Assembly (NCBI GenBank): GCA_021792615.1
Contig: JAJYUJ010000006.1
Coordinates: 15,700-79,699 of the forward strand
Length of the DNA: 64,000 nucleotides
Direction of reading: 5' to 3'
From: a bacterium
GTDB taxonomy: Bacteria > JAMCPX01
This document shows, piece after piece, positions 1 to 15,415 of this stretch (positions are counted from its first letter, which is position 1; every line of letters starts with the position of its first letter). The translations under genes were made by a program, and so were the position numbers. Below the pieces are notes generated by a model, which saw only the letters and a program-made list of their open reading frames with translations, made no database searches and was not told the DNA's origin.

Positions 1-371
1 ACCATAGCGGTAACATAGGACACCGAATAATGCGGCAGAGGGAGGTTCAGTATATTGAGAATATTGTTATACTTTATCTCCACATCTCCGAGCATGCTTA
101 ATTTTAACTTGAGCATGCCGATCTGCTTCTTGAGAGCGGTATTTTCTTTTTTGACATGAACAAGATCGATATAGTTCGTCCAGATTTCTTTCAGTCCGTT
201 TGCGCCACGAGCTGCAGTGGACATAACGAGTGCGCCGCCCTGAAAAATGATCCTGGAAGGATAAACAAGCGGTCCCCTGGAAAAAATATCCGAATAGGCA
301 AGCTGAAAAGATACGACGAGAATCAGTATCGCAATAATATGCCGGTGATGTTTGACAAGCCAGTCCCACAT
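1..371 (-). CDS. mreC: rod shape-determining protein MreC, N-terminal portion (gene continues beyond window start)
   Basis: Minus-strand frame opening with ATG at 371-369 stays open to position 1. Translation MWDWLVKHHRHIIAILILVVSFQLAYSDIFSRGPLV...ENTALKKQIGMLKLKLSMLGDVEIKYNNIL shows an N-terminal TM anchor followed by a coiled coil, as in MreC. It lies directly downstream of mreB in the canonical order. It is absent from the ORF track because there is no stop codon in the window. Confidence 0.6.
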   Translation of the reverse strand, partial: MWDWLVKHHRHIIAILILVVSFQLAYSDIFSRGPLVYPSRIIFQGGALVMSTAARGANGLKEIWTNYIDLVHVKKENTALKKQIGMLKLKLSMLGDVEIKYNNILNILNLPLPHYSVSYVTAM

Positions 372-487
372 AGTATTATCTCTTCGTTACGCAAAAAAAT
401 ACCGGCACATCAAAAGGGATAAAAGGCCCTCTTTATGCTCCCGGAATACATGCGACGGATAATGGGTTATGTGATGCACCGGATCCT

Positions 488-1525
488 TCATGTAACCAGG
501 ACCTTGCCGAGCCTTCCCAGTTCATCGAGTACTTTACCGCTTCCCTTTACGACGCTCGTCAGCGGATCGTCGACAAGGATCACCGGCAGTCCGGTGTGTT
601 CCCGTATCAGCACGTCAAGGTTTCGGAGCATGGAGCCTCCGCCGGAAAGCACGATACCTCTTTCAACAATATCCGCGGCAAGTTCCGGCGGAGTATGCTC
701 GAGCGCTTCTTTGATAACATCGATGATCGATTCAAGAGGTTCCTGAAGGGCCTCCCGTATTTCCTCGTCCGTTATCTCGAGTACCTTCGGTATACCGGTG
801 AGCAGGTCCCTTCCGCGCACGTCAAACTTCAGAGGAGTATTGAGCGGATAGGCGCTGCCTATGGATATTTTTATCTCTTCAGCCGTCGACTCTCCGATCA
901 GCATGTTGTATTTTTTCTTCATGTAATTGACCATGGCCGTGTCCATCTTATCACCGCCTACCTTTATCGATCTCGAATAGACAATGCCCGACAAGGATAT
1001 CACGGCAACACCCGTGGTCCCGCCGCCTATATCCACAATCATGTTTCCCGAGGGCTTTGTTATATCAAGCCCTGCCCCGATAGCGGCTGCCATCGGTTCT
1101 TCTATAAGAAACACTTCTTTTGCGCCCGCGGATTCGGCGGATTCCTTGACCGCCTTCTTCTCCACCGGCGTGAGGCCGAGCGGAATGCAAACAATGATCC
1201 TCGGTCTCATCAACGTGTAGTGGTTATTCTGTGCCTTGTTTATGAAGTACTTGAGCATCTGCTCCGTAACGTAAAAATCCGCTATCACACCCTCCCGGAG
1301 AGGCCGTATCGCAGATATGTTTCCCGGGGTCCTTCCCAGCATTTTCTTTGCATCATTCCCCACGGCAAGTATTTTTTTGATGCCATGACTGTCCGTATAG
1401 ATTGCAACAACCGATGGTTCATTCGCAACAATGCCCTTCCCCTTTACATAGACAAGCGTGTTTGCGGTCCCGAGGTCTATGCTCAGATCGTTCGAAAATA
1501 AACTTACAAAGAATCCAGTCATCAT
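488..1525 (-). CDS. mreB: rod shape-determining actin-like protein MreB
   Basis: 345-aa ORF with N-terminus FSNDLSIDLGTANTLVYV and actin-fold motifs (DIGGGTT, LSGGG) throughout; typical MreB length. Confidence 0.9.
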   Translation of the reverse strand: MMTGFFVSLFSNDLSIDLGTANTLVYVKGKGIVANEPSVVAIYTDSHGIKKILAVGNDAKKMLGRTPGNISAIRPLREGVIADFYVTEQMLKYFINKAQNNHYTLMRPRIIVCIPLGLTPVEKKAVKESAESAGAKEVFLIEEPMAAAIGAGLDITKPSGNMIVDIGGGTTGVAVISLSGIVYSRSIKVGGDKMDTAMVNYMKKKYNMLIGESTAEEIKISIGSAYPLNTPLKFDVRGRDLLTGIPKVLEITDEEIREALQEPLESIIDVIKEALEHTPPELAADIVERGIVLSGGGSMLRNLDVLIREHTGLPVILVDDPLTSVVKGSGKVLDELGRLGKVLVT

Positions 1526-1530
1526 ATCTC

Positions 1531-2715
1531 CTAAAACCGTTTTAGTCTCAATGCATTGATCTTGATAAATCCCTCTGCATCTTTCTGATTATACACGTAT
1601 TCCTCTTCGAAGGTAGCCAGTGACTGATTGTAGAGCGAATACGGGGATCTTCTTCCGGCAACGGTTACATTCCCCTTGTATAATTTCAGCCGTACATCCC
1701 CGGTCACCCTCTGTTGTGTTTCATCGATGAACTTCTGCAGCGCTATCCTTTCGGGTGAAAACCAGTAACCGTAATAAACCATTTCGGCATAGCGTGTAAT
1801 CATGCTGTCCTTCATATGGTAAACTTCCCTGTCGAGTGTTATGGATTCCATGGCCCTGTGCGCGTAATGCAGAATGGTGCCGCCCGGCGTTTCATAAACA
1901 CCCCTTGATTTTATACCGACATACCTGTTCTCGACGAGATCGACCCTTCCGATTCCGTTCCGGCCGCCAATCTTGTTGAGTTCCTGAAGCAGGGCAAGCG
2001 GTTTCATCTTCCTGCCGTTCAAAGCCACCGGATTCCCTTTTTCGTACGATACCTGCAGGTAGGCAGGCCTGTCAGGTGCTTTTTCCGGCGGGGTCATAAG
2101 GGTGTACATGTCTGACGGGGGCTCTGCCCATGGGTCTTCCAGGATACCTCCTTCGTAGCTTATATGGAATATGTTCCTGTCGCTCGAATACGGCTTATCT
2201 TTTGTTGCGGCAACCGGGATGCCGTGTTTTTTGGAATACTCGATGAGCTGTGTACGCGATTTGAATTCCCATTCCCTCCACGGCGTTATAACGCGGATCT
2301 TGGGATTTATCGTATAGTACGTCAATTCGAATCTGACCTGATCGTTACCCTTCCCCGTCGCACCGTGCGAGACCGTATCAGCCCCGACCTCTTTCGCCAG
2401 TTCCATTTGTGTTTTAGCGATTAAGGGCCTTGCGATAGATGTTCCCAGCAGATACGCACCTTCATATATTGCATCTGCTCTGAGCATCGGAAAAATATAA
2501 TCCGATACAAAAACATCTTTAACGTCTTTTATGTAAGCTGCTTTTGCACCTGTCTTCAAAGCCTTGGCTTTAATAGCTTTCAGGTCTTCACCCTGGCCAA
2601 GGTCCGCTATAAATGCGATGACCTCGCAATGATACGTTTCCTTCAGCCAGCTCAGGATAACGGACGTATCCAGGCCGCCTGAATATGCTACAACAACCTT
2701 CTTTACCTCTTTCAC
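1531..2715 (-). CDS. argG: argininosuccinate synthase
   Basis: 394-aa ORF. The N-terminal PP-loop AYSGGLDTS and overall length and sequence are typical of ArgG. It is separated by 5 bp from mreB and 2 bp from the upstream gene. Confidence 0.9.
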
Positions 2716-2717
2716 TT

Positions 2718-3308
2718 CTACCTCCTTGGATTATGAAAAGTAACGATACCATTCCTCAACAACATAGTAAGATTCCTCATAAAAAGAAATCTGTCAATAC
2801 CGCTTAAAGCAAGCAGTTCGTCGACGCTTGAATCGCCGTCTATCATGGAAATAATGTATGCAGACTCTTTTGTTAAATTGATCTTCATGATATCTTCCAT
2901 GTTTTTTTTCAATTTTACGGCTGAGCCGGTATCACCAACCTCGCTTAAATAATCTTTCAACAACAATCCCTTCGTCGTATCAAGGAATTTCTGCGCTTTC
3001 TCGTCTTCGGGATTTTCGTGAATGATCATCTGGAGCAGTTCATAAGCGGGATCGAATTGGTTCTTGCCTATCAACCGTATGGCCTCCTCAAGCAATTCCC
3101 TGTAAATTACTTTTTTATCTTCGAACGGCACTTCTTCCTCTATCGAACGGATGTAATCCATCGCGAGTTCGTTGCCGGGATCGGCCGCAAGCACTTTTTT
3201 CCACATTTTCTGGGCAGCAACAAAATCTCCCTGGGCGAAGCTGTCGAGTCCGGATTCGAAAATGTGCAGGATCTTTTCGTTTTTTAAAATGTCTTCGGGA
3301 TTGTTCAT
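2718..3308 (-). CDS. TPR-like protein with C-terminal ~45-aa domain shared with the upstream J-domain protein; putative co-factor of the adjacent Hsp70 paralog
   Basis: 196-aa ORF. Its start overlaps the Hsp70 paralog stop by 4 nt. The N-terminal region is helical and TPR-like ([32 protein letters not shown]). The C-terminal segment [30 protein letters not shown] aligns with the N-terminus of the 4888-6036 protein (LTPIEGYLLSRVDGVSSVDDLASLSGLPYD). Confidence 0.55.
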
Positions 3309-4891
3309 TCTTCGTCTTTCAGATCGATTTCGTACAGGTGAGCTTCGTCCGACATGACCTTTATTTCGTCATCGGTAAGCTTGCTGCTCGACATTATCTC
3401 GATTTTACTCTCGAGCCCCGTGTCTATATCGACCGCCGATACGTTTACTATCCCGTTATTGTCGATATCGAAGCTCACGTCTATTCTGGGCTCACCTTTT
3501 TTCGTCATTCGTATACCGGAGAGTATAAATTCCCCGAGCAGTTCGTTCTCCTCTGCCGATTGGTTTTCTCCCTGGAAAACCCTTATTCTGACAGCGGTCT
3601 GGTTATCGTAGGATGTTGTAAAGGTATGACTCTTTTTTACCGGGATGGTGGTATTCCGCTCTATTATCTTTGCGAATTCCCCGCCGTGCGTTTCAATGCC
3701 GAGAGACAGGGGCGTAACATCGAGAAGCAGCATATCGCTCGAACCTTCCGAAAGCGCTGCTCCGTCTATTGCCGCTCCTATGGCTACCACTTCGTCAGGA
3801 TTTACACCCTTATGTGATGCCTTTCCAAAAAATTTTTTTACCCTTTCGACGAGCAAGGGCATCCTGGTCTGTCCGCCGACGAGAATGATCTCATTGATAT
3901 CGGTCGATTTGATACCGGCATTCTTCAGTGCTTCCTGAACGATGTCTATGGTTTTGCTGATGAGGTCCTCGGATAATTGCTCGAGTTCGTTACGGGTAAT
4001 CCTCCGGGTATAGTGCCGCGGCCCTGTCTTATCATAAGCAATGAAAGGGAGATTGACCGTCGATTCCATGGCACCGGAAAGTTCTATCTTCGTTTTCTCC
4101 CCCGCCTCTTTTAACCGCTGCAGTGCCATTCTGTCCGAACCGAGGTCCGCACCAATGGTCTCTTTTATTTCCTTTATAAAAAGCTGGATAAGCCTGTTAT
4201 CGATGTCCTCACCTCCGAGGTACGTATCGCCGGCCGTCGATATAACTTCGAACACACCTTTATGAATTTCCAGTATCGAAACGTCGAATGTCCCTCCGCC
4301 GAAATCATAAACAAGCACCTTCTCGTTATCGACGTGTCTGTTCAATCCATACGCTATCGCAGCGGCCGTCGGTTCATTGATGATCCTCATGACATCGAGT
4401 CCTGCGATCTTCCCTGCGTCTTTCGTTGCCTGCCGCTGATTATCGTTAAAATAAGCAGGTACCGTTATAACCGCCTCCTTCACTTCTTCGGAGAGGTATT
4501 CCTCGGCCACTTTCTTCATCTCTATGAGAATCATGGCGGAGACTTCCGGAATGCTGTAGTCTTTACCGCTGATAGTGATCCGGACATCTTCGTTGGGTCC
4601 CTGGGTCAGCTTGTACGCTATATTTTTTTTGGCAACCTCGACCTCCTGAGAATCGAACCTCCTGCCGATGAGCCTCTTAAAGGCAAACACCGTGTTGTCC
4701 GGGTTGATAACGGCCTGACGTTTTGCCAGATTGCCGACGAGCTTTTTGTTATCCTTTGTTATCGCAAAATACGATGGTGTTATCCTGTAACCGGCCTTAT
4801 TTGGAACCACGATAGGTTGTTTGTTTGCCATGACTGCAACACATGAATTTGTCGTACCAAGATCTATTCCAATAACTTTACTCATAATCAA
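3305..4891 (-). CDS. Hsp70-family ATPase, short paralog (HscC-like: NBD + substrate-binding beta domain, truncated lid), not canonical DnaK
   Basis: 528 aa. It carries Hsp70 signatures IDLGTTNS, DFGGGTFDVS and VLVGGQTRMP, and the SBD beta segment LLDVTPLSLGIET. It is about 110 aa shorter than DnaK at the C-terminus. No grpE or dnaJ-type Zn-finger protein is adjacent; instead it is flanked by a J-domain/TPR protein and a TPR protein with 4-nt overlaps on both sides. Confidence 0.8.
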   Translation of the reverse strand: MIMSKVIGIDLGTTNSCVAVMANKQPIVVPNKAGYRITPSYFAITKDNKKLVGNLAKRQAVINPDNTVFAFKRLIGRRFDSQEVEVAKKNIAYKLTQGPNEDVRITISGKDYSIPEVSAMILIEMKKVAEEYLSEEVKEAVITVPAYFNDNQRQATKDAGKIAGLDVMRIINEPTAAAIAYGLNRHVDNEKVLVYDFGGGTFDVSILEIHKGVFEVISTAGDTYLGGEDIDNRLIQLFIKEIKETIGADLGSDRMALQRLKEAGEKTKIELSGAMESTVNLPFIAYDKTGPRHYTRRITRNELEQLSEDLISKTIDIVQEALKNAGIKSTDINEIILVGGQTRMPLLVERVKKFFGKASHKGVNPDEVVAIGAAIDGAALSEGSSDMLLLDVTPLSLGIETHGGEFAKIIERNTTIPVKKSHTFTTSYDNQTAVRIRVFQGENQSAEENELLGEFILSGIRMTKKGEPRIDVSFDIDNNGIVNVSAVDIDTGLESKIEIMSSSKLTDDEIKVMSDEAHLYEIDLKDEE

Positions 4892-6036
4892 TCCTCTATT
4901 AAAGATTTTATTTCTTGTATCATTGTCTCTGCATGAGAATCAGCAGGCTTTATGTTTTTAATAGTCTCATACACCTTTAAGGCGTTTCTGTATAGCTTAA
5001 ATTTCATATATATTTCTCCGAGCAGTTCGTATGCCCTTACATTGTTCGCATCGTATTCTATTGCCATCTGGGTATAATCCCTGGCATTCAGCAAGTCATT
5101 ATGTTTTAGATAATAATGTGCCATGAGTAAAGGTATTCTTGAGTCCCGGACATCCTTCAATGCAGCCATTTCACCCAGGACCTGCTGCAGCATATTTTTG
5201 TCCAGCCTTTCCTTCATAAGAGCAATCTTCTGTTCCAGTGCGGATTCAAGGGACCGGGGGTTCTCGATTTTTACCGTCTCCTCACTCTGCACGGATTGCA
5301 TGGGCTCGACAAAGGGCGGCTCTTGAAACTTTACCGTCTCTTCGGTATTTGCCGATTTTATCGTCTCTTCTCTCCTGACGGACTGAGCGGATGTGATACG
5401 CGGCGGTTTTTGATACTCTGCCGTCTCTTCGGTATTCACTGATTTTATCGTACGGGCACCTGTATTGTCCGGTGGTGCAGCCCTCTGCGTCCGGGATGCC
5501 GGTGTGTTTGCATTTACCAGTGCGGCATCATACCATTGTTTTTTCTGCGGATCGTAAAGAACTTCATACGCCTCCGAAAGCTTCTTAAAAATTGCGTTGA
5601 GTTTGACCTTATAATCGCCTATATTTTTTTTGAAATACCTGTCCGGATGGTAAATCTTCGATAGTTCAAAAAATTTTGCCTTCACCTGATCAGGCTTTAC
5701 CTGAAGAGGTACGGATAGTATCTGATAAAACGTTCCGTTTTTTACGGTATCGGTCATTTTTTCTATGGCGCTCTTTTCATCTTCACTCAGGTCAACATCG
5801 TTATTTTCTTTATTGCCCGCAGGTTCCAACCCGTCGATCAGAAAAACTTTTTTATTCCAGAGACCCTTGATAACTTCAAGCGCCTGGTCATAGGGCAACC
5901 CGCTCAGAGAGGCAAGGTCGTCAACGGAACTTACACCATCTACTCTCGACAGCAAATATCCCTCTATCGGCGTCAGCTTCAGAGTGTTGTATGATAGCGA
6001 AGAATTCAGTTTTGGCACCCCTTTTATAAATTCCAT
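4888..6036 (-). CDS. J-domain (DnaJ-like) co-chaperone with N-terminal shared domain, tandem 29-aa linker repeats and C-terminal TPR
   Basis: 382 aa. It has a J-domain with HPD motif (FYQILSVPLQVKPDQVKAKFFELSKIYHPDRY...YEVLYDPQKKQWYD) but no DnaJ Zn-finger or C-terminal domains. The linker carries two to three tandem ~29-aa units (IKSVNTEETAEYQKPPRITSAQSVRREET / IKSANTEETVKFQEPPFVEPMQSVQSEET), visible as ~90-bp DNA repeats at about 5270-5500. The C-terminal region is TPR-like. The N-terminal 60 aa share a domain with the 2718-3308 protein. Confidence 0.75.
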   Translation of the reverse strand: MEFIKGVPKLNSSLSYNTLKLTPIEGYLLSRVDGVSSVDDLASLSGLPYDQALEVIKGLWNKKVFLIDGLEPAGNKENNDVDLSEDEKSAIEKMTDTVKNGTFYQILSVPLQVKPDQVKAKFFELSKIYHPDRYFKKNIGDYKVKLNAIFKKLSEAYEVLYDPQKKQWYDAALVNANTPASRTQRAAPPDNTGARTIKSVNTEETAEYQKPPRITSAQSVRREETIKSANTEETVKFQEPPFVEPMQSVQSEETVKIENPRSLESALEQKIALMKERLDKNMLQQVLGEMAALKDVRDSRIPLLMAHYYLKHNDLLNARDYTQMAIEYDANNVRAYELLGEIYMKFKLYRNALKVYETIKNIKPADSHAETMIQEIKSLIED

Positions 6037-6086
6037 ACGATAAGATCTCTACCTCTCTCCATGAATAAACCCAGGATATTCGCAAC

Positions 6087-6317
6087 CTATCCTATAATCT
6101 CAAGGTTATATCTTTTCCCCCTTTTACCGCTTGCGGCGAGAAGGATCGTCCGAATGGCTTTGGCATGATTGCCTTCTTTCCCTACGATTTTCCCGACATC
6201 GTTTTTGGCGACCTTCAGTTCGAGTACAACAGTATGCTCACCCTCAATTTCCGTAACATTAACCTCCTCCGGATTATCCACCATGGCCTTCGCTATCTTT
6301 TCTATGAGCTCCTTCAT
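6087..6317 (-). CDS. KH-domain RNA-binding protein (YlqC/UPF0109-like)
   Basis: 76 aa with KH core [22 protein letters not shown] (GXXG loop); size and pattern match the small KH-domain family. Confidence 0.7.
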
Positions 6318-6327
6318 CTTACCCTCC

Positions 6328-6618
6328 TTATTTTTTTATACTCCCTATTTTCTGCCTTTTGAGCATTTCTTCTTTGTACTTTGAATAAAGTATCTTCCAT
6401 TCCTCGCTTCCCTCCGGAACCCTTTTGGATAATGAGGCTATTTTATCCCTCACTGAGTTATCGATGGATTCATTGAAGTTTTCAAAGTCCGCAAATCCGT
6501 TTTTAATAAGGGCGAGTATTTCCCCTCTTCTGGTAGGATCGATAAGGTTTTTTTCCATAAGCCGGCTGACGATGTCATGGGAAAGTTTGCTTATTCTTTC
6601 ATCACTCAAGCGGCTCAT
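6328..6618 (-). CDS. DUF507 family protein
   Basis: 96-aa charged helical protein ([14 protein letters not shown]...). It is a paralog of the adjacent 6615-6896 ORF, overlapping it by 4 nt; DUF507 genes typically occur as such pairs. Confidence 0.55.
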
Positions 6619-6896
6619 ATGATGAGCTTCCTTTCTTTTATAAGCTGCTGCTTGATCATATTGAAAAGTTTGTTGTAATCCAGCTTTCCCGACTTGAGTT
6701 CCGAATCATACCTTTCCATAATGTCCTTAACTTCTTCATTCAGCCTGTCTTCCAATTTCATATCCTCTGCAATGATGGCATAAATGGCAAGGCTTATATC
6801 TTCCCTTTTGGCCTGTTTCAGGAGCAGATTCTTGTCCACGATCATCTTGGACAAAAAGTCGCTTAATCCTCTCATCTCTTCACTGTTCAACTTCAT
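6615..6896 (-). CDS. DUF507 family protein (paralog)
   Basis: 93 aa with the same architecture as its neighbour (LSDFLSKMIVDKNLL vs [15 protein letters not shown]). Confidence 0.55.
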   Translation of the reverse strand: MKLNSEEMRGLSDFLSKMIVDKNLLLKQAKREDISLAIYAIIAEDMKLEDRLNEEVKDIMERYDSELKSGKLDYNKLFNMIKQQLIKERKLII

Positions 6897-6945
6897 TTTA
6901 TTTTACAACCTTTTCTATTTCTTTCTTAAGCAAGAATTTAACCGC

Positions 6946-7422
6946 TTACACGTACATTTTCTTCCAACCCGGTTTCACCTTTTTCTTGCCGCACTGCTTG
7001 CAGATACCGAATATCTCCAATCTGTGAAAAATGGGCGCAAAGCCCGTGTTGCTGGATGCCTTATCTTTTAATTTTTCTATTTCTGCATCTTTAAATTCTG
7101 TGACCGAGCCGCACCGGATACAGATCAGATGGTCGTGCTGAACAGAGGGTTCGTCATTGATTTCATATCTGGTAAAACCGTCCTTAAAATCAACCTCACG
7201 AGCAAAGCCGTACCTGACGAGGAGTTTGAGTGTCCTGTAAACCGTAACGAAACCTATGCCTGCCCGGATTTTTTTTACTATTTCATACAGTTCGTCTGCA
7301 TTGAGATGCTTATTGCTTGCAACAAAGGCACGGATAATGGCATTCCTTTTTTCACTGTTTCTGAACCCTTTTTTATCAAGTTCTGAAATGATTTTATTCT
7401 GAAAAATCAACTTTCTATCCAT
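6946..7422 (-). CDS. Fur-family metal-responsive transcriptional regulator
   Basis: Sequence from MDRKLIFQNKIISELDKKGFRNSEKRNAIIRAFVASNKHLNADELYEIVKK... shows a winged-helix N-domain and the C-terminal metal site HDHLICIRCGSV...CKQCGKK (HxH and CxxC motifs), as in Fur/Zur/PerR. The start is taken at ATG 7422; the ORF-track start at 7533 adds 37 non-Fur-like residues. Confidence 0.75.
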   Translation of the reverse strand: MDRKLIFQNKIISELDKKGFRNSEKRNAIIRAFVASNKHLNADELYEIVKKIRAGIGFVTVYRTLKLLVRYGFAREVDFKDGFTRYEINDEPSVQHDHLICIRCGSVTEFKDAEIEKLKDKASSNTGFAPIFHRLEIFGICKQCGKKKVKPGWKKMYV

Positions 7423-7548
7423 AGTATGCCTTTTACCAGAAATACGGTGTATGTCAACTCTGCCGGTCCGTATCATGGAGGATTTTAAAACGTTACCTGC
7501 CCTTTCTGCCGGTAATTGTTCAAAGAAAAACAATCACCGTAAACGATA

Positions 7549-7577
7549 TTGACAATATAGTTATTGTTTGTATTTAA
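7549..7577 (+). promoter_or_regulatory. candidate sigma70 promoter (TTGACA-N16/17-TATTTA) for the C1 peptidase gene, with a 16-bp palindrome ACAATATAGTTATTGT (7552-7567) in the spacer
   Basis: The -35 match TTGACA is at 7549-7554 and the -10-like TATTTA at 7571-7576. RBS AAAGGAGG lies at 7594-7601 and the ATG at 7606. The palindrome overlaps the spacer, which is the classic position for a repressor operator, and the fur-family gene is divergently adjacent. Confidence 0.3.
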
Positions 7578-7605
7578 ATTGTTACAAACCTTAAAAGGAG
7601 GCTTT

Positions 7606-8346
7606 ATGATAAAAAGACATTACGGGTGGCGGCCGGACGTACCGGATCAAAGGGATTTTTTGTACTCGAGGGTGGTCAGGATACCGAAAAAACTGCCTGG
7701 TATAATCGATCTGAGGGTGCACTGTTCTGCCGTCGAGGATCAGGGTGATCTTGGAAGCTGCACGGCCAATGCACTTGCCGGAAATATCGAATATCTTGAA
7801 AACATCCAGGCCCGGAAATTCGAGGATAAAAGCAGGCTTTTCATCTACTACAACGAACGATCCCTGGAAGGACATGTGGGGGAAGACAGCGGTGCCATGC
7901 TCAGGGACGGGATTAAGGTATGTGCAAAGTACGGAGCATGTGACGAACGTATATGGCCATATACCATAAATAAATTCGCACTTAAACCGGATAAAAAGGC
8001 ATACGCGGACGGAAAGAAACATCTGATCGTATCGTATCACAGGATTCTGACCACAGACGAGATGCGTACATGCCTTGCGGAAGGATTTCCTTTTGTGTTT
8101 GGTTTCGCGGTTTATGAGAGCTTCGAGACACAGCGGGTCGCAAGCACCGGTGTCGTCAATATGCCCGGAAAGTCGGAAAGGATGCTCGGCGGGCATGCTG
8201 TCATGGCCGTTGGCTACGTTGATAAAGTAAAGAGGTTCATTGTGAGGAATTCATGGGGCGAAGACTGGGGTGTGCGCGGATATTTCACGCTGCCGTATAA
8301 ATACATGCAGACACTCGCCGATGACTTCTGGACCATACGGAAGTAG
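7606..8346 (+). CDS. papain-like cysteine peptidase (family C1), no signal peptide
   Basis: Active-site Cys context QGDLGSCTANA, His context GGHAVMAVGY and the Asn/Trp motif NSWGEDWG are all present. The start is chosen at ATG 7606, which is preceded by AAAGGAGG. There is no N-terminal hydrophobic signal, which predicts a cytoplasmic location. Confidence 0.8.
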   Translation: MIKRHYGWRPDVPDQRDFLYSRVVRIPKKLPGIIDLRVHCSAVEDQGDLGSCTANALAGNIEYLENIQARKFEDKSRLFIYYNERSLEGHVGEDSGAMLRDGIKVCAKYGACDERIWPYTINKFALKPDKKAYADGKKHLIVSYHRILTTDEMRTCLAEGFPFVFGFAVYESFETQRVASTGVVNMPGKSERMLGGHAVMAVGYVDKVKRFIVRNSWGEDWGVRGYFTLPYKYMQTLADDFWTIRK

Positions 8347-8405
8347 ATAAACCCGGAAAATGCTTAGGTGACGGGAAAGCTAAAAGAACGGGCGATTGAG
8401 AAATC

Positions 8406-8429
8406 AGGGGCTTAAAAATCTAAGCCCCT
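8406..8429. terminator. bidirectional rho-independent terminator hairpin between convergent C1 peptidase and ilvC genes
   Basis: AGGGGCTTA-AAAATC-TAAGCCCCT is a perfect 9-bp stem. It is followed by TAATTTGATT on the plus strand and a T-containing run on the minus strand. It sits 60 nt after the peptidase stop and 23 nt after the ilvC stop. Confidence 0.55.
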
Positions 8430-8452
8430 GTAATTTGATTGTTTGTCGGGAA

Positions 8453-9469
8453 CTAATTCTTGTTCTTGTCTACCAGCTTTTCTTTCTTGAGCCACGGCAT
8501 CATCTCTCTCAACTTCTGTCCGGTTTTCTCCGCAAGGTGCTCTTCGCCCTTCCTGGTCAGTGCGTTGAATACGGGCCTGTTCGCCTTATTCTCGAGGATC
8601 CATTCCTTTGCAAAACTGCCGTCCTGAATTTCCTTCAGAATCGACTTCATCTCGCACTTGACCGCGTCCGATATAACTCTCGGACCACGGGTCAGATCTC
8701 CAAATTGCGCGGTGTTGCTGACAGAGTATCTCATGTTCGACATGCCTCCTTCGTAGACAAGGTCGACGATGAGTTTCATCTCGTGAATACATTCGAAATA
8801 TGCCATCTCGGGTGCATAGCCGGCGTTAACGAGTGTCTCGAAACCGCCGAGCATAAGGGCTGTAACGCCGCCGCACAGAACAGCCTGCTCGCCGAACAGG
8901 TCGGTTTCCGTTTCTTCTTTAAAAGTCGTTTCAATAATACCTGCCCTGCCCGCACCGATGCCTGCGGCATAAGCAAGTCCTACCTCTTTCGTGTCTCCCG
9001 ATGGGTCCTGGTGTATTGCAAGCAGCGATGGCACTCCCCTGCCCTTGGTGTATTCACCTCTGACGAGATGCCCTGGACCTTTGGGAGCAACCATAAATAC
9101 GTTGACATCCGGAGAAGGGATAATCTGTCCGTAGTGTATATTAAAACCATGAGCAAACGCGAGATATGCCCCTTTCCTGAGGTTGGGTCCTATCTCTTTA
9201 CTATAAATGTCGGCCTGCAGTTCATCCGGAAGCAGGATCATGACGACATCCGCCTGTTTTACGGCATCCGCAATGTTGTACACCTTAAATCCGGCAGCCT
9301 CGGCCTTGGCCCATGATTTACCTTCCTTCCTTCCGCCTATAATAACATTCATCTTGCTTTCCTTCAGGTTGTTGGAATGACCGAATCCCTGACTTCCGTA
9401 ACCGATAATGGCTATAGTTTTACCCTTTAGCGGTTTCGTATCGATATCTTTTTCGTAATAAACTTTCAT
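8453..9469 (-). CDS. ilvC: ketol-acid reductoisomerase
   Basis: 338 aa with Rossmann motif [15 protein letters not shown]; length and sequence are typical of class-I KARI. Confidence 0.9.
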
Positions 9470-9632
9470 ACTGCCTCCTTTTATATTTTCATTTTTTTTA
9501 ATTACTTGTTTTTGTCATTCCGCACTTGATGCGCAATCCGGTTGTTTCTCTTTCTCTGGTTTCCCCTTTTCATGTGAATGACAGGAAAGACCGCTCTGGA
9601 ACGGAACAATCATATTTTTATTGTTTTACTCT

Positions 9633-10133
9633 CTATTTGTTGTCTATAGAATTATGCTGGATTGACCGCTGCATTGCAACTTTTCCGGTCCTCACGATGT
9701 CCTTCACCCCGAGCGGTTTCAAAAGATTGAGAACTGCACCAATCTTCTCTTCATCGCCCGTGAGTTCTATAACAAAAGTATCGGGACTCACGTCGACGAT
9801 CTTGCCCCGGAATATATCAACCAGCCTCAGCACCTCTGTCCTGTTTTCACCGGAAGCCGATACCTTTATCAGCACCATCTCCCTTTCTACATGTCCGGTA
9901 ACCGTCAGATCGACGACCTTGATAGTATTGATAAGCTTGTTCAATTGCTTGATAATCTGCTCGATAATTTTATCTTCACCGTTGGTTACTATCGTCATCT
10001 TGGATACGGAAGGATCCAGCGTCTCTGCCACGCTCAAACTTTCTATGTTATAACCTCTGCCGCTGAACAATCCAGCAACCCTTGCAAGTACACCGAACTT
10101 ATTCTCGACGGTTAGCGATATCGTATGCCTCAT
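9633..10133 (-). CDS. ilvN: acetolactate synthase small (regulatory) subunit
   Basis: 166 aa with ACT domain ([33 protein letters not shown]), positioned directly downstream of the large subunit. Confidence 0.85.
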
Positions 10134-10142
10134 TATTCACCC

Positions 10143-11831
10143 CTATGCTAATAACATCTTTTTCAGAGAAGCCCCGGACGGTACCATCGGGTAGACGTCC
10201 TCTTCCTCTTCAACGCGAAAATCGATCAGTACCGGAAGTTTACTCTTGAGCGCTTCCTTCAATACCGGAAGAACATCGTTTTTCTTTTCTACTGCATATC
10301 CTTTGGCACCATACGCATCGGCAAGTTTCACAAAATCGGGTTTATGGGACATATCGGTATGCGAGTATCTCTTGCCGTAAAAAAGGCTCTGCCACTGCCT
10401 GACCATTCCGAGATAGTTGTTGTTCAGGATTGCCACGACCACATTCACCTTGTACTGCACGGCCGTTGCAAGCTCCTGAATATTCATTTGAATGCTTCCG
10501 TCTCCCGCGATGTCGATAACGGTTGCTTCCGGCATGGCGACCTTTGCGCCGATGGCTGCGGGAAAGCCGTAGCCCATGGTCCCGAGTCCGCCGGATGTTA
10601 CGAAGGTCCTTGGCTTGCCGAACTTATAAAACTGGGCTGTCCACATCTGGTTCTGACCGACCTCCGTTGTGATAATGGCATTGCCTTTCGTCAATTCGTA
10701 AATCCGTTCTATGACAAACTGCGGCTTGAGCTTGCCGGTCTCCTTGTAGGTCAGCGGATGAGATTCTTTCCACTGGTTTATAAGCGTCTTCCAGTCCTCA
10801 CTCTCGCGGACAAAGCCTTTAAGCCTCTTATCCTGTTTTAAAAGCTTGTTCATCTCTGCCAGAATACTTTTTGCATTTCCGACAATCGGTATGTCCACCT
10901 CTACGTTTTTACTGATGGAAGTCGGGTCTATATCGATATGCACAATCTTCGCCTCGGGCGCAAATTCACTGATATCGCCGGTTACCCGGTCATCGAACCG
11001 TGCGCCGATTGCAACAAGCATATCGGTATGCGTAACAGCCATATTTGCCGCATAGGTTCCGTGCATGCCGAGCATGCCCAGAAACAACGGGTGCTCGCCC
11101 GGAAATCCTCCAAGCCCCATGAGCGTATTGGTCACCGGTGCCTTCAACAATTCCGCAAATGCAAACAGCTCTTTTGAAGCACCGGAGCTTATAATACCTC
11201 CGCCGGTATAGATAACCGGTTTTTTCGAAGCGAGGATCATGTCTATTGAACGTTTGATCTGGTTTGTATGGCCTTCGTACGTCGGTTTATATCCCGGCAA
11301 TTCAATATCATCGGGATAAGAGAACTCGGCTGAATCCATGGTGACATCCTTGGGGATATCCACAACGACAGGCCCCGGCCTGCCGGTCCTTGCTATATAG
11401 AACGCCTCTTTTATGGTTTTTGCTATGTCCTTGACATTTTTAATGAGAAAATTGTGTTTTGTGCATGACCGTGTGATACCGACAATATCTGCCTCCTGGA
11501 ATGCATCGTTGCCGACCAGATTTGTAGGCACCTGTCCCGTAAATACAACGATAGGTATGGAATCCATGTATGCCGTGGCCAACCCCGTCACCGTATTTGT
11601 AGCACCGGGACCGGATGTTACAAGGGCAACCCCAACCTTTCCTGTTACCCGTGCGTAACCGTCTGCCATGTGAGCTGCGCCCTGCTCATGTCTGACGAGA
11701 ATGTGCTTTATATCGCTGTGATAAAGCTCATCATATATGTATAGTACGACGCCGCCGGGATATCCGAAGATCGTATCCACACCCTCTTTTTTGAGACTCT
11801 CCACAAATATTTTTGCGCCATTCATCTTCAT
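10143..11831 (-). CDS. ilvB: acetolactate synthase large (catalytic) subunit, ThDP/FAD-dependent
   Basis: 562 aa with ThDP-binding GDG...NN motif ([18 protein letters not shown]...[12 protein letters not shown]); typical AHAS. Confidence 0.9.
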
Positions 11832-11962
11832 GTGTTCTCTATCCTTTCCTTCGATCTATTTTCAGCATCCCTTTAAAATACGAAGGGCTTCGGGCGTTAT
11901 GACCTTGCTTTTGCAGCTCCGTCCCTGTTGTGCACGAGGGTTAACGCAGAAGCGCCTGCGAA

Positions 11963-13624
11963 TCACCTCAGTACAGCACCGGTGTTCGCCGATGTCACCA
12001 GCTGAGCGTACCGGGCAAGCCAGCCACTCTTGAATTTAGGTTCGGGAGGCTTGAATTCCATTCGCCTTCTTTTAATTTCATCATCATTGATATCAATATC
12101 AATAGATTTTTTCTTAAGGTCTATAATAATGGTGTCGCCATCCCTGACCAGAGCGATGGGTCCGCCAGCGGCTGCTTCAGGAGAAACATGTCCTATGGCA
12201 AGCCCCCGCGTCCCTCCGGAAAACCTCCCATCCGTAATCAGGGCGACTTTGTCTCCCATACCCATACCCGATATCGCCGAAGTCGGCGACAGCATCTCAC
12301 GCATACCGGGACCGCCCCTGGGTCCTTCATACCGCACGAAAATGGCATCTCCGGCTTTTATCTGCTTGCCCATGATAGCCTTCATCGCGAGCTGCTCCGA
12401 GTCAAAGACCTTTGCCGTACCTTTAAAATATTCGAGCCCTGCTTCTATGCCTGCGACCTTGATCACCGCACCGTCCGGTGCGAGACTGCCTTTCAACACC
12501 GCAATACCGCCGCTTTTACTGTAGGCTTTGTCGAGCGATCTTATAACCTCTTTATCGTAGACCGTGCCTCTCTTTGCAAGCTCCAGTATGGATGGTCCGG
12601 TAACAGTCGGGTTGTCCTTGAGCATGTCTTTTAACCTGTTTAACACCGCCGGAATACCGCCTGCATATTCGATATCCTCCATCATATAATCACCCGATGG
12701 CCGGATGCGGGTAATGTTGGGCGTTTCACTGCTGATCCTATCGAACAAATCCAGGGGGAGTTCTATGCCGGCTTCATGCGCAATCGCAGTGATGTGCAGT
12801 ACCGTATTCGTGGAACCGCCGAGAGACATGTCCACGCGTATTGCATTCTCAAATGCATTCTTCGTCATGATCTGCCGTGCCGTAATATTGTTTTTAACAA
12901 GTTCAACGATTCTCTTGCCGGTTTCAAAAGCAAGGTGCCTTTTCTTCGAGGATACTGCAAGTGCTGTTCCGGCACCGTACAATGACATGCCCAGCACCTC
13001 GGTAAGACACGCCATGGTGTTTGCGGTAAATAATCCCTGGCAGGATCCTTCACCCGGACATGAACCGATCTCCATCGCCACAACATCATCTTCCGTAAGC
13101 TCGCCCCTGTTGTATTTACCGACTGCTTCAAATGCATCATGAACAAGATCGAGCCGTTCGCCCTTATATCTTCCCCCGAGCATGGGTCCTGCCGTCAAAA
13201 CGATTGCGGGTATATCGAGCCGTGCAGCAGCCATAAGCATGCCCGGTGTTATCTTGTCGCAGTTCGTCAGCAGTATCATACCGTCAAGCCTGTGCGCGGA
13301 AATCACCGTTTCGACGGAGTCGGCAATAAGCTCCCGTATGGGGAGGGAGTAATGCATACCAACATGTCCCATTGCTATACCGTCACAAATACCGGGTATA
13401 CCAAAGAGAAATGGGTGGCCGCCGCCTGCGTAAACTCCGTTCTCGAGAAATCTCTCCAGTGTCCTCATGCCGACATGACCGGGGATCAGATCGGTAAAAC
13501 TCGATGCTATTCCGATAAACGGCTTTTCGAATTCAGAACGTGCAACACCGGTCGCATGCATCAGCGCACGGTGCGGTACTCTTTCGATTCCCTTTTTTAT
13601 TTCATCACTGCGCATGAGGGTCAA
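11963..13624 (-). CDS. ilvD: dihydroxy-acid dehydratase
   Basis: 553 aa with Fe-S cluster Cys ligands ([17 protein letters not shown]) and an ILVD/EDD C-terminal region. Confidence 0.9.
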
Positions 13625-13991: not shown

Positions 13992-14696
13992 TCAGAATTG
14001 AGAACCAAGCGTTTCTATTGCATTCCTTACTTTCTCTATCAGGGCTTCCTTGATGTCCAAGGTATACCCCGACATACTGATAGGCTCTCCGACATTGAGG
14101 TGGATCAGTCCTGGTTTTATCTTCAGGCTGTGGGGCGGTAAAAGCTCGAAACTCCCCTGTACCGCCATAGGGACAATGGGTATTCCGGTTTCGAGGGCAA
14201 GCACAAACCCGCCCTTTTTGAATTCACCCATCTTCCCTGTCATACTCCTTGTTCCTTCAGGAAACACCAATACGGACAATTTATACTTTCGTATTAATTC
14301 CTTAGCTTTTTCAATACTTTTCTTGGCACTCTCGATATTTTTTCTGTCAATAACAATGTGCCGCGACATATAAAGCGCCTGTCCGAATATGGGTAGTTTG
14401 ATGAGCTCTTTTTTAACAAAAAATCTTATCCTGAAAGGAAGGTTTGGTGCCCATGCAACAGCATCGAGATGGCTCTGATGATTGGACATAAATATATATG
14501 ATTTGTCTTTATCGAGATGATCCAAACCTTTTATGTCTACCTTTATTCCTGCACAGAATCTGATGGCCAGTGCCCATAACCGTGCACCGACATCATAAAC
14601 CCTGCCTCCCCGGTCAAAGATACCGGCCAGAGCAACAAGGGAACCGATCACTATGGTATTGATGATAATGACAATGACTGTTATAAAGGATCTCAT
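13992..14696 (-). CDS. plsC: 1-acyl-sn-glycerol-3-phosphate acyltransferase (PlsC-family), paralog 1
   Basis: HX4D acyltransferase motif FMSNHQSHLD and the FPEGTRS motif, with an N-terminal TM anchor. Confidence 0.8.
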   Translation of the reverse strand: MRSFITVIVIIINTIVIGSLVALAGIFDRGGRVYDVGARLWALAIRFCAGIKVDIKGLDHLDKDKSYIFMSNHQSHLDAVAWAPNLPFRIRFFVKKELIKLPIFGQALYMSRHIVIDRKNIESAKKSIEKAKELIRKYKLSVLVFPEGTRSMTGKMGEFKKGGFVLALETGIPIVPMAVQGSFELLPPHSLKIKPGLIHLNVGEPISMSGYTLDIKEALIEKVRNAIETLGSQF

Positions 14697-15415
14697 ACTG
14701 CTGGGTGGTCTCCCTTGCCAAGCCCCTCTATCTCCGAGCGTACCTTATCCATGAGTTCCTGTTTTCTTTCGACGGTATAGGTATCAACCGGTATGGGGTT
14801 GCCGACCTTTATGTGTATGGCTCCGGATTTTATCAGCAATGTATGGGTGGGCAGCAGCTTGAAGCTCCCGCTAATCTCGATAGGCGCAATAGGAATACCC
14901 GTTTCAATGGCAAGTACAAACCCTCCTTTTTTGAAATCCCCCATCTTCCCGGTCTTACTTCTTGTTCCCTCGGGGAATACGAGAACGCTGAATCCGTATT
15001 TTTTTATCCTCTTCTTCGCTTCATTGATACTCCTTTTGGCTTTCTCCGTATTCTTTCTGTCTATGATGATATGCTTACCCATATAAATCGCCTGACCAAA
15101 GATGGGAATGCTAAGAAGTTCTTTCTTTGTGAAGAATCTTATTTTAAACGGCAATTTTGCCATAAAAGCAGGCGTATCAAGATGGCTCAAGTGGTTCGAC
15201 ATGAATATGTAAGAAGTATCTTTATCGAGATGTTCGAGTCCTTCAATAGTAACTTTTATCCCTGCCGCAAAGAAGATGATGCTTGACCACGCAATAGATA
15301 TGAGATCATAGATGCCGCCGGTAAAGTCGAAGAATCCGGTCACGATTACGAGGGTCCCGGCAACGATGGTATCAAGAATAACAACAAGAGCGGTAATGTA
15401 CGATCGTATTCGCAT
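14693..15415 (-). CDS. plsC: 1-acyl-sn-glycerol-3-phosphate acyltransferase (PlsC-family), paralog 2 (tandem duplicate)
   Basis: FMSNHLSHLD and FPEGTRS motifs. It is roughly 55-60% identical to its neighbour by eye across the full length, with a 4-nt overlap between the genes. Confidence 0.8.
   Translation of the reverse strand: MRIRSYITALVVILDTIVAGTLVIVTGFFDFTGGIYDLISIAWSSIIFFAAGIKVTIEGLEHLDKDTSYIFMSNHLSHLDTPAFMAKLPFKIRFFTKKELLSIPIFGQAIYMGKHIIIDRKNTEKAKRSINEAKKRIKKYGFSVLVFPEGTRSKTGKMGDFKKGGFVLAIETGIPIAPIEISGSFKLLPTHTLLIKSGAIHIKVGNPIPVDTYTVERKQELMDKVRSEIEGLGKGDHPAV

Follow-up and report, generated by a model that had tools for sequence, protein, structure and literature searches.

A lid-truncated DnaK-like Hsp70 encoded between a J-domain protein and a TPR-winged-helix protein: a candidate dedicated chaperone cassette

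A stretch of 64,000 nt from a bacterial contig (GenBank JAJYUJ010000006.1, positions 15,700 to 79,699; hereafter the window, in which all positions are counted) carries three packed minus-strand genes at 2718-6036, which encode a J-domain protein, an Hsp70 without most of its lid, and a small protein that joins tetratricopeptide repeats (TPRs) to a winged-helix (WH) domain. An earlier note, made from the sequence of this DNA alone, had described a module of a J/TPR protein, a truncated Hsp70, and a TPR protein there, and both the genes and their positions were confirmed. We propose, with moderate confidence, that the cassette encodes a dedicated three-component Hsp70 machine, which would be targeted by its J-protein to specific native clients or signalling partners. 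The more specific suggestion that the WH domains of the two partners pair is held with less confidence than this general claim. That the trio is a dedicated, conserved unit and not a chance neighbourhood, as the earlier note had supposed, is well supported. Work on bacterial Hsp70s rests on DnaK, HscA, and HscC, the three systems that have been studied.

The conservation of the cassette was examined in close and distant relatives. Full synteny was found in nine related metagenome-assembled genomes (MAGs; L001-L009), which belong to the same uncultivated clade and go under the names 'Deltaproteobacteria bacterium', 'uncultured Pseudomonadota bacterium', or 'bacterium'. The gene order in these MAGs was Fur-DUF507-DUF507-KhpA-J-Hsp70-TPR/WH-argG-mreB, and the Hsp70s were 86-96% identical to the window protein, the TPR-WH proteins 67-88%, and the J-proteins 54-67%. 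In distant relatives, whose DNA has a GC content of about 70%, the TPR-WH protein was only 25-34% identical and the arrangement was unchanged. In locus L016, for example, the order at 1301-8797 was argB-argF-J (408 aa, with an N-terminal WH domain)-Hsp70 (524 aa)-TPR/WH (196 aa)-PAS-like-argG. Five further loci (L019, L013, L015, L018, and L020) matched the cassette arrangement as far as their contigs extend.

A metagenome survey, in which a narrower family alignment was used for the scan, found 446 stretches with relatives of the TPR-WH protein; the best 80 of these (L021-L100), a distant and high-GC group, were analysed, and 74 loci were parsed. A gene for a lid-truncated Hsp70 directly preceded the TPR-WH gene in all 66 loci that had upstream sequence, and a J-protein gene was present upstream in 27 of the 28 loci with room for one. 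Of 24 of these J-proteins, 20 had a detectable N-terminal WH domain. A PAS-like gene followed the TPR-WH gene in 69 of the 74 loci, argG was found downstream in 23, and argB or argF upstream in 18, so that the usual high-GC order was argB-argF-J-Hsp70-TPR/WH-PAS-like-argG (for example L024:18-7973). In the loci where the DVTPLSLG linker of the Hsp70 could be located, 136 aa separated it from the stop codon 50 times, 135 aa once, and 144 aa three times; in E. coli DnaK the distance is about 250 aa. The C-termini of the metagenomic Hsp70s (...ELYEVQLK[DE]) resembled the tail of the window protein, and the motif LYE[VI]xLK[DE] recurred in distant loci. The same truncation point, tail motif, and two partner genes recur across lineages of 46% to 71% GC, which marks a distinct orthologous group.

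The Hsp70 gene lies at 3305..4885 on the minus strand and encodes a DnaK-like protein of 526 aa. The match to Pfam HSP70 (E = 1.7e-209) covered profile positions 1-517 of 599, the match to the NCBIfam DnaK model PRK00290 covered positions 1-515 of 625, and PDB alignments spanned E. coli DnaK residues 1 to about 530; the Hsp70 therefore stops a few turns into lid helix B. These alignments bear out the claim that it lacks most of the lid, that is, helices B-E of the alpha subdomain of the substrate-binding domain (SBD-alpha), and they show that the C-terminal tail of DnaK is absent as well. What is left, judged by the DnaK alignment, is a C-terminal stub (3308..3370, minus strand) that consists of helix A and the beginning of helix B together with the conserved tail. 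The length of 528 aa given in the earlier note had to be corrected, because it was based on a TTG at 4891 that is not retained in orthologues, which keep the ATG at 4885 (MSKVIG...). On NCBIfam scores the protein is placed with DnaK, at 764.7 bits against PRK00290 (cut-off 648), and not with HscA, as it remained below the cut-offs of both HscA models (530.5 vs 708.55 and 528.6 vs 620).

Residue conservation was scored on 44 members of this Hsp70 family, including the window protein, with an E. coli DnaK reference whose numbering checked out at the scored sites. The catalytic residues D8, K70, E171, D194, T199, and D201 (E. coli numbering), the J-docking residues R167, N170, and T173, the interdomain linker L390-D393, and the substrate-pocket residues I401, T403, F426, Q433, and I438 were invariant in all 44 sequences, and V436 was retained in 43 of them. 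The substrate-arch residues were replaced throughout, M404 by F, Y, or H and A429 by T or S. One lid-shortened DnaK derivate is thereby defined by a fixed truncation, a tail, arch residues, two partners, a WH module, and a stable genomic address.

The J-protein gene (4888..6036, minus strand) encodes a protein of 382 aa, for which the open reading frame (ORF), Pfam matches, orthologue alignment, and the annotation from PGAP ('DnaJ domain-containing protein') gave the order WH domain, J domain, variable linker, TPR region. The J domain (aa 103-170; 5527..5730) was matched by Pfam DnaJ (PF00226) with E = 5.2e-14 and 52.5 bits, and its HPD motif (H130, P131, and D132) was invariant in the orthologue alignment. 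No match to DnaJ_C or DnaJ_CXXCXGXG was found in the protein with Pfam or NCBIfam. With an HPD J domain and without a G/F region, Zn-finger, or DnaJ C-terminal domain it is a class-C J-protein, and the statement that it carries TPRs and no Zn-finger or C-terminal domain stands. No second J-protein was found in the window. The alignment showed that the N-terminal acidic WH domain (aa ~13-68; 5833..6000) is conserved, the linker poorly so, and the C-terminal TPR region (aa ~270-382; 4891..5229) highly so. Several TPR-type Pfam families matched residues 271-376 with E-values from 1e-3 to 6e-6, each under its gathering score. The tandem 29-aa repeats mentioned in the earlier note were recovered as two 87-nt copies in the linker (5269..5442) that are 70% identical; Tandem Repeats Finder at its thresholds reported no tandem repeat in the J gene. 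Since this stretch is absent or variable in orthologues, the repeats represent a lineage-specific expansion of the linker. The C-terminal 'LIED' of the J-protein was invariant in orthologues. Its possible role as a TPR-binding tail was rejected as unsupported, because the same codons contain GAGGA, the ribosome-binding site of the Hsp70 gene.

The third gene (2718..3308, minus strand) encodes the TPR-WH protein of 196 aa, which was delimited by ORF, Pfam, AlphaFold2 (AF2), and family alignment. It was matched by Pfam TPR_19 at 26.4 bits (cut-off 25), in agreement with its earlier description as a small TPR protein. The AF2 model (pLDDT 83.8) contained TPR-like helices at aa 4-124 and, after them, three helices with a strand on either side; the N-terminal TPR-like domain was assigned to aa 1-124 (2937..3308) and the C-terminal acidic WH domain to aa 136-192 (2733..2903). 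The ATG of this gene overlaps the Hsp70 stop codon (ATGA). Of the 4-nt overlaps previously reported on both sides of the Hsp70 gene, this downstream one holds, but the upstream one depended on the non-conserved TTG, and the true Hsp70 start lies 2 nt past the J-gene stop, with its ribosome-binding site within the final J-gene codons. Judged from this packing, the Hsp70 is translationally coupled to its own J-protein and to the TPR-WH protein.

The two partners of the Hsp70 share a domain at opposite termini, as had been noticed before. BLASTP aligned the N-terminus of the J-protein with the TPR-WH protein at 14 of 29 identical positions (E = 7e-6), and when profiles built from many genomes were compared, the J-protein N-terminus matched the C-terminus of the TPR protein over all 48 columns with a probability of 98.2% (E = 3.7e-14). 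AF2 modelled the isolated segment of the J-protein as three helices (pLDDT 80). A Foldseek search of the PDB with this segment returned a top 50 that consisted almost entirely of winged helix-turn-helix (wHTH) proteins of the Lrp/AsnC, MarR, ArsR, and IclR types, with probabilities up to 0.91 and non-significant E-values (0.46 or worse), as expected because the segment has only 58 residues. By these models the shared domain is a divergent, acidic member of the winged-helix fold. In the window proteins it matched no named wHTH family at E <= 0.1 in Pfam or NCBIfam; of 20 family members, two were matched by HTH_47 (E 0.051 at best), and weak matches to TrmB, MarR_2, HTH_IclR, HTH_47, HTH_Crp_2, and DUF4423 were obtained for relatives with multiple copies or a PATAN fusion.

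The domain had been called novel. Neither Pfam nor NCBIfam was found to hold a dedicated model for it, and to that extent the claim holds, but the domain is a divergent form of a known fold and is widespread: 1334 protein clusters were found (E <= 0.001) when 1.84 billion representative proteins were searched exhaustively with a profile. The best 148 of these clusters were sorted with hidden Markov models of our own. Among them, 44 had the same N-terminal TPR domain with a C-terminal WH domain, about 15 were WH(-WH)-J(-TPR) proteins, six had two WH copies and no detected J domain, and 81 had a WH domain only, many of these being short fragments. PATAN-WH-WH-J-TPR proteins also occur, and nothing relevant on a combination of PATAN, DnaJ, TPR, and winged helix was found in the literature. 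A large, acidic WH family without a family model is flagged here, whose members occur in fusions with J, TPR, and PATAN domains and are encoded beside genes for cyclic di-GMP (c-di-GMP) receptors. Fusions to PATAN/DUF4388, J, and TPR were seen in proteins P0043, P0034, P0038, P0057, and P0068; the DUF4388/PATAN region of P0043 scored 36.5 bits against the NCBIfam MshE-type c-di-GMP motif, whose cut-off is 38.

The identity between the two WH domains within one genome was 23-35%, no higher than across lineages, and orthologous WH domains were more alike (35-39%). Since the copies within a genome are no more alike than copies from different lineages, they are ancient paralogues and not the product of a recent duplication. 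Concerted evolution of the two domains within genomes was not found in this identity comparison.

These features suggest how the proposed machine might work. The Hsp70 would be a DnaK-derived paralogue that keeps a predicted ATPase, J-docking surface, linker, and hydrophobic substrate pocket. Published work on lid-truncated DnaK suggests fast kinetics for a lidless clamp, and such a clamp would bind and release quickly and might accept segments of folded proteins; its partners would be specific native or partly folded proteins. The HPD J domain of the J-protein is predicted to trigger the ATPase of the Hsp70, while its WH domain and C-terminal TPR region would provide targeting. Through their WH domains the J-protein and the TPR-WH protein may meet on a shared partner or may contact each other, and the TPR-WH protein could be an adaptor or could itself be a regulated client that the Hsp70 remodels. 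The machine would likely serve to control a signalling or assembly complex and not to fold proteins in bulk, because a PAS/kinase-like gene comes next in most lineages and the family is associated with the c-di-GMP receptor domains MshEN, PilZ, and PATAN.

Several observations weigh against a dedicated machine. The window Hsp70 was barely closer to distant lidless relatives (56-61% identity) than to E. coli DnaK (54-58%; about 55% for the window protein). It evolves as slowly as a housekeeping gene, as its high identity among the MAGs shows, and these levels together indicate a slowly evolving, DnaK-derived protein. It clears the PRK00290 cut-off, and PGAP names it 'molecular chaperone DnaK'. 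No co-evolution signal was obtained between the WH domains of the partners, as their identity within genomes did not exceed that across lineages. A variant locus, L012 (4223-7951), encodes a full-lid Hsp70 of 611 aa with a J-protein of 311 aa in which no WH domain was detectable; it also encodes a TPR-WH protein of 316 aa and sits after coaE and argD, beside hslVU-like genes. Members of the TPR-WH family were also found away from any nearby Hsp70 gene, in L010, L011, and L014. Finally, the Myxococcus xanthus J-proteins MXAN_3015 and MXAN_2745, which are compared with the cassette J-protein below, co-purified with the canonical DnaK1 (PMC11019930), so the J-protein of the cassette may also serve an Hsp70 other than its neighbour.

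The points that concern the Hsp70 itself would fit another explanation, in which it is the principal housekeeping DnaK of the organism, acted on by GrpE and DnaJ from genes elsewhere, and its neighbours encode ordinary co-chaperones or have nothing to do with it. This explanation also draws on the retention of every functional residue at about 55% identity to E. coli DnaK, and on the window, in which no second Hsp70 was found. However, the protein failed the stricter TIGR02350 cut-off (738.8 vs 822.55 bits), and a truncation point, tail motif, and partner pair that recur over so wide a range of GC content are not what it leads one to expect. Neither grpE nor a class-A dnaJ was found beside the Hsp70 gene or among the window ORFs scanned; the GrpE family scan covered ORFs of 150-270 aa, within which the earlier statement that no grpE is present held true. 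We therefore regard a housekeeping role as unlikely.

A second explanation starts from the WH domains, which would bind DNA, so that the J-protein and the TPR-WH protein would be transcription factors, for example for arginine genes, with an oligomeric state switched by the Hsp70. There is a precedent in the winged-helix initiator RepA, whose oligomeric state is switched by DnaK and DnaJ. The predicted fold, the wHTH regulators that head the structural matches, the weak TrmB, MarR, and IclR Pfam matches in relatives, and the position of the cassette inside an argB-argF...argG cluster all agree with it. In contrast, the domains are acidic. The net charge was -2 for the WH domain of the window J-protein and -1 for that of the TPR-WH protein; it averaged -4.3 in 66 relatives, group means ranged from -3 to -4.3, and 93% of 153 domains were at zero or below. 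By this count, which takes the whole domain rather than its surface, the WH domains did not show the basic character of a DNA-contacting surface. They also form long tandem arrays, with up to 11 matched stretches in one protein (for example one of 1897 aa), and are fused to PATAN, REC, J, and TPR domains, which is typical of protein-protein scaffolds. The structural matches were not significant, and no Arg_repressor match was obtained with Pfam. The acidity and the arrays argue for protein interaction over DNA binding, and on these sequence features both WH domains are most likely protein-binding; a pair of transcription factors seems quite improbable.

The cassette was compared with known systems. 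One of the closest is HscC with its J-proteins DjlB and DjlC, which likewise combines a DnaK paralogue with a shortened lid and dedicated class-C J-proteins (PMC8215388, PMC13580251). HscC works without an exchange factor on a narrow set of clients (PMC8215388, PMC13580251); both HscA and HscC use dedicated J-proteins and lack a nucleotide exchange factor (PMC8215388). Unlike the cassette, the HscC system has no TPR-WH component or shared WH domain and lies in another genomic context, and HscC shares only about 28% identity with DnaK (PMC8215388), compared with about 55% for the window Hsp70, a difference that argues against HscC membership. HscA and HscB, which act in iron-sulfur cluster assembly, resemble the cassette in that a specialised Hsp70 receives a single native client from the one J-protein dedicated to it. 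However, the Hsp70 scored below the HscA cut-off (530.5 vs 708.55), there are no isc genes nearby, and the HscB models matched the J-protein only weakly and in its J-domain region alone, with 17.2 and 14.0 bits where the cut-offs are 169 and 189. The analogy with HscC-DjlC or HscA-HscB drawn in the earlier note is thus reasonable as a comparison of logic, but membership of the HscA or HscC family is not supported.

Lid-shortened DnaK 'derivates' are common in Myxococcales, where their roles are unknown, and have never been seen without a bona fide DnaK (2026 review, PMC13580251). Of two class-C J-proteins of M. xanthus, MXAN_3015 adjoins the Hsp70 MXAN_3016 and MXAN_2745 is near MXAN_2747, whose SBD-alpha is 'much shorter'; deletions of the Hsp70 genes lower sporulation and oxidative resistance (PMC8265645, PMC11019930). 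The J domains of MXAN_3015 and MXAN_2745 have the same HPDR[YF]F motif as the cassette J-proteins, followed by a long insert. Against the J domains of the window, L016, and L012, MXAN_3015 scored 140-149, MXAN_2745 scored 99-131, and canonical DnaJ scored 86-120, while the three cassette J domains scored 127-150 against each other. The pairs are also alike in that the J gene lies beside or near an Hsp70 gene, as judged by locus-tag numbers. They differ in that MXAN_3016 is of full size (65.5 kDa), as is the Hsp70 of variant L012, and in that the passages searched in the two papers describe no TPR-WH partner, shared domain, or arginine-cluster position (PMC8265645, PMC11019930). From these likenesses it is plausible that MXAN_3015/3016 and MXAN_2745/2747 are relatives of the cassette, and L012 may correspond to the MXAN_3015/3016 type.

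The M. xanthus data also bear on a third explanation, in which the lidless Hsp70 is not the working chaperone itself. It would serve the canonical DnaK as a co-chaperone or exchange factor, in the manner of Hsp110 or Ssz1, and it is this DnaK that the J-protein would recruit. In Hsp110 and Ssz1, linkers, J-interfaces, or substrate sites are degenerate. A co-chaperone role has been proposed in general for bacterial DnaK derivates (PMC13580251), and the M. xanthus J domains, which score 129-149 against those of the window and L016 (canonical DnaJ 114-120), belong to the proteins that co-purified with DnaK1 (PMC11019930); but the linker, J-interface, and substrate site are invariant across the 44 sequences here and the Hsp70 gene is coupled to its own J-protein, which makes this explanation very unlikely.

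Looser resemblances were found elsewhere. M. xanthus StkA, a DnaK homologue of 540 aa, is not induced by heat and regulates exopolysaccharide instead of serving as a general chaperone (PMC4319316). It was rejected as a known counterpart, because its downstream partners are SCP2-like and PhaE-like proteins rather than a TPR-WH protein, and no adjacent J-protein is described (PMC4319316). Among eukaryotic proteins, Hop, CHIP, DNAJC3/P58IPK, and DNAJC7 are co-chaperones with TPRs, and TPR and J domains are combined there in one protein; in the Ssz1-zuotin pair, the atypical Hsp70 Ssz1 has no lid and is linked to a single J-protein. The eukaryotic TPR/J co-chaperones differ in domain order, while the cassette is bacterial and gave no evidence of a carboxylate clamp that reads the Hsp70 tail.

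The genes downstream of the cassette in the window lie on the same strand. Argininosuccinate synthase, argG (1531..2715, minus strand; NCBIfam PRK00509, 3.8e-190), begins 2 nt after the TPR-WH stop, and mreB (488..1525, minus strand; NCBIfam MreB, 1.4e-156) begins 5 nt beyond argG. Next comes the beginning of mreC at 3-371 (minus strand), which encodes the N-terminal 123 residues, 66% identical to the MreC of L006, before the gene leaves the window; the order mreB-mreC assumed in the earlier note is thereby confirmed. The tight spacing of these genes, together with the absence of any minus-strand terminator-like site found across 1-7700, fits the earlier suggestion that the cassette is co-transcribed with argG-mreB-mreC. 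The link to morphogenesis that had been drawn from mreB and mreC did not hold beyond this lineage: mreB adjoins the cassette in the window clade only (L001-L009) and in none of L021-L100, and elsewhere the neighbours are argB, argF, the PAS-like gene, and argG. The lineage of the window retains only the argG adjacency from the arginine cluster. Unlike the mreB link, the position in the arginine cluster is conserved.

In L010 (1286-4668), L011 (396-3778), and L014 (2882-6258) the TPR-WH family occurs in the order MshEN-PilZ-TPR/WH-PAS/HATPase_c, without an Hsp70 or a J-protein, and in L017 a WH-WH-J-TPR protein adjoins an MshEN-HD-REC-PATAN protein. The MshEN-PilZ context suggests a tie of the family to c-di-GMP signalling. 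A bolder extension of the proposal, which we consider possible if doubtful, is that the J-protein, the lidless DnaK, the TPR-WH protein, and in most lineages the PAS-like protein together constitute a signalling chaperone machine of a kind not described before, in which the acidic WH domain would be the address tag that gathers the J-protein and the adaptor on a sensor complex. The lasting location of the cassette between argF and argG would then point to a real regulatory tie of the machine to arginine or nitrogen status or to growth. If true, this would be a new class of bacterial Hsp70 system beside DnaK, HscA, and HscC. As hundreds of environmental genomes carry the cassette, a vague class of DnaK derivates becomes a testable system.

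The region upstream of the cassette was also annotated. A KhpA-type gene with a KH domain (6087..6317, minus strand; Pfam KH_KhpA-B, 2.5e-23) lies 50 nt upstream of the J gene and is a lineage-specific neighbour. Two small minus-strand genes at 6328-6896 matched the two halves of DUF507 (profile positions 1-92 and 95-180), and this split-looking pair upstream of KhpA is kept in all the related MAGs. A Fur-family regulator (6946-7533, minus strand) heads the minus-strand array, and a gene for a papain-family C1 cysteine peptidase (7564-8346, plus strand) is divergent from it. Further along the minus strand, what by eye, from the translations, looks like a branched-chain amino-acid cluster of ilvC, ilvN, ilvB, and ilvD-like genes occupies 8453-13624, and two tandem paralogous acyltransferase genes (PF01553) with a 4-nt overlap lie at 13992-15415.

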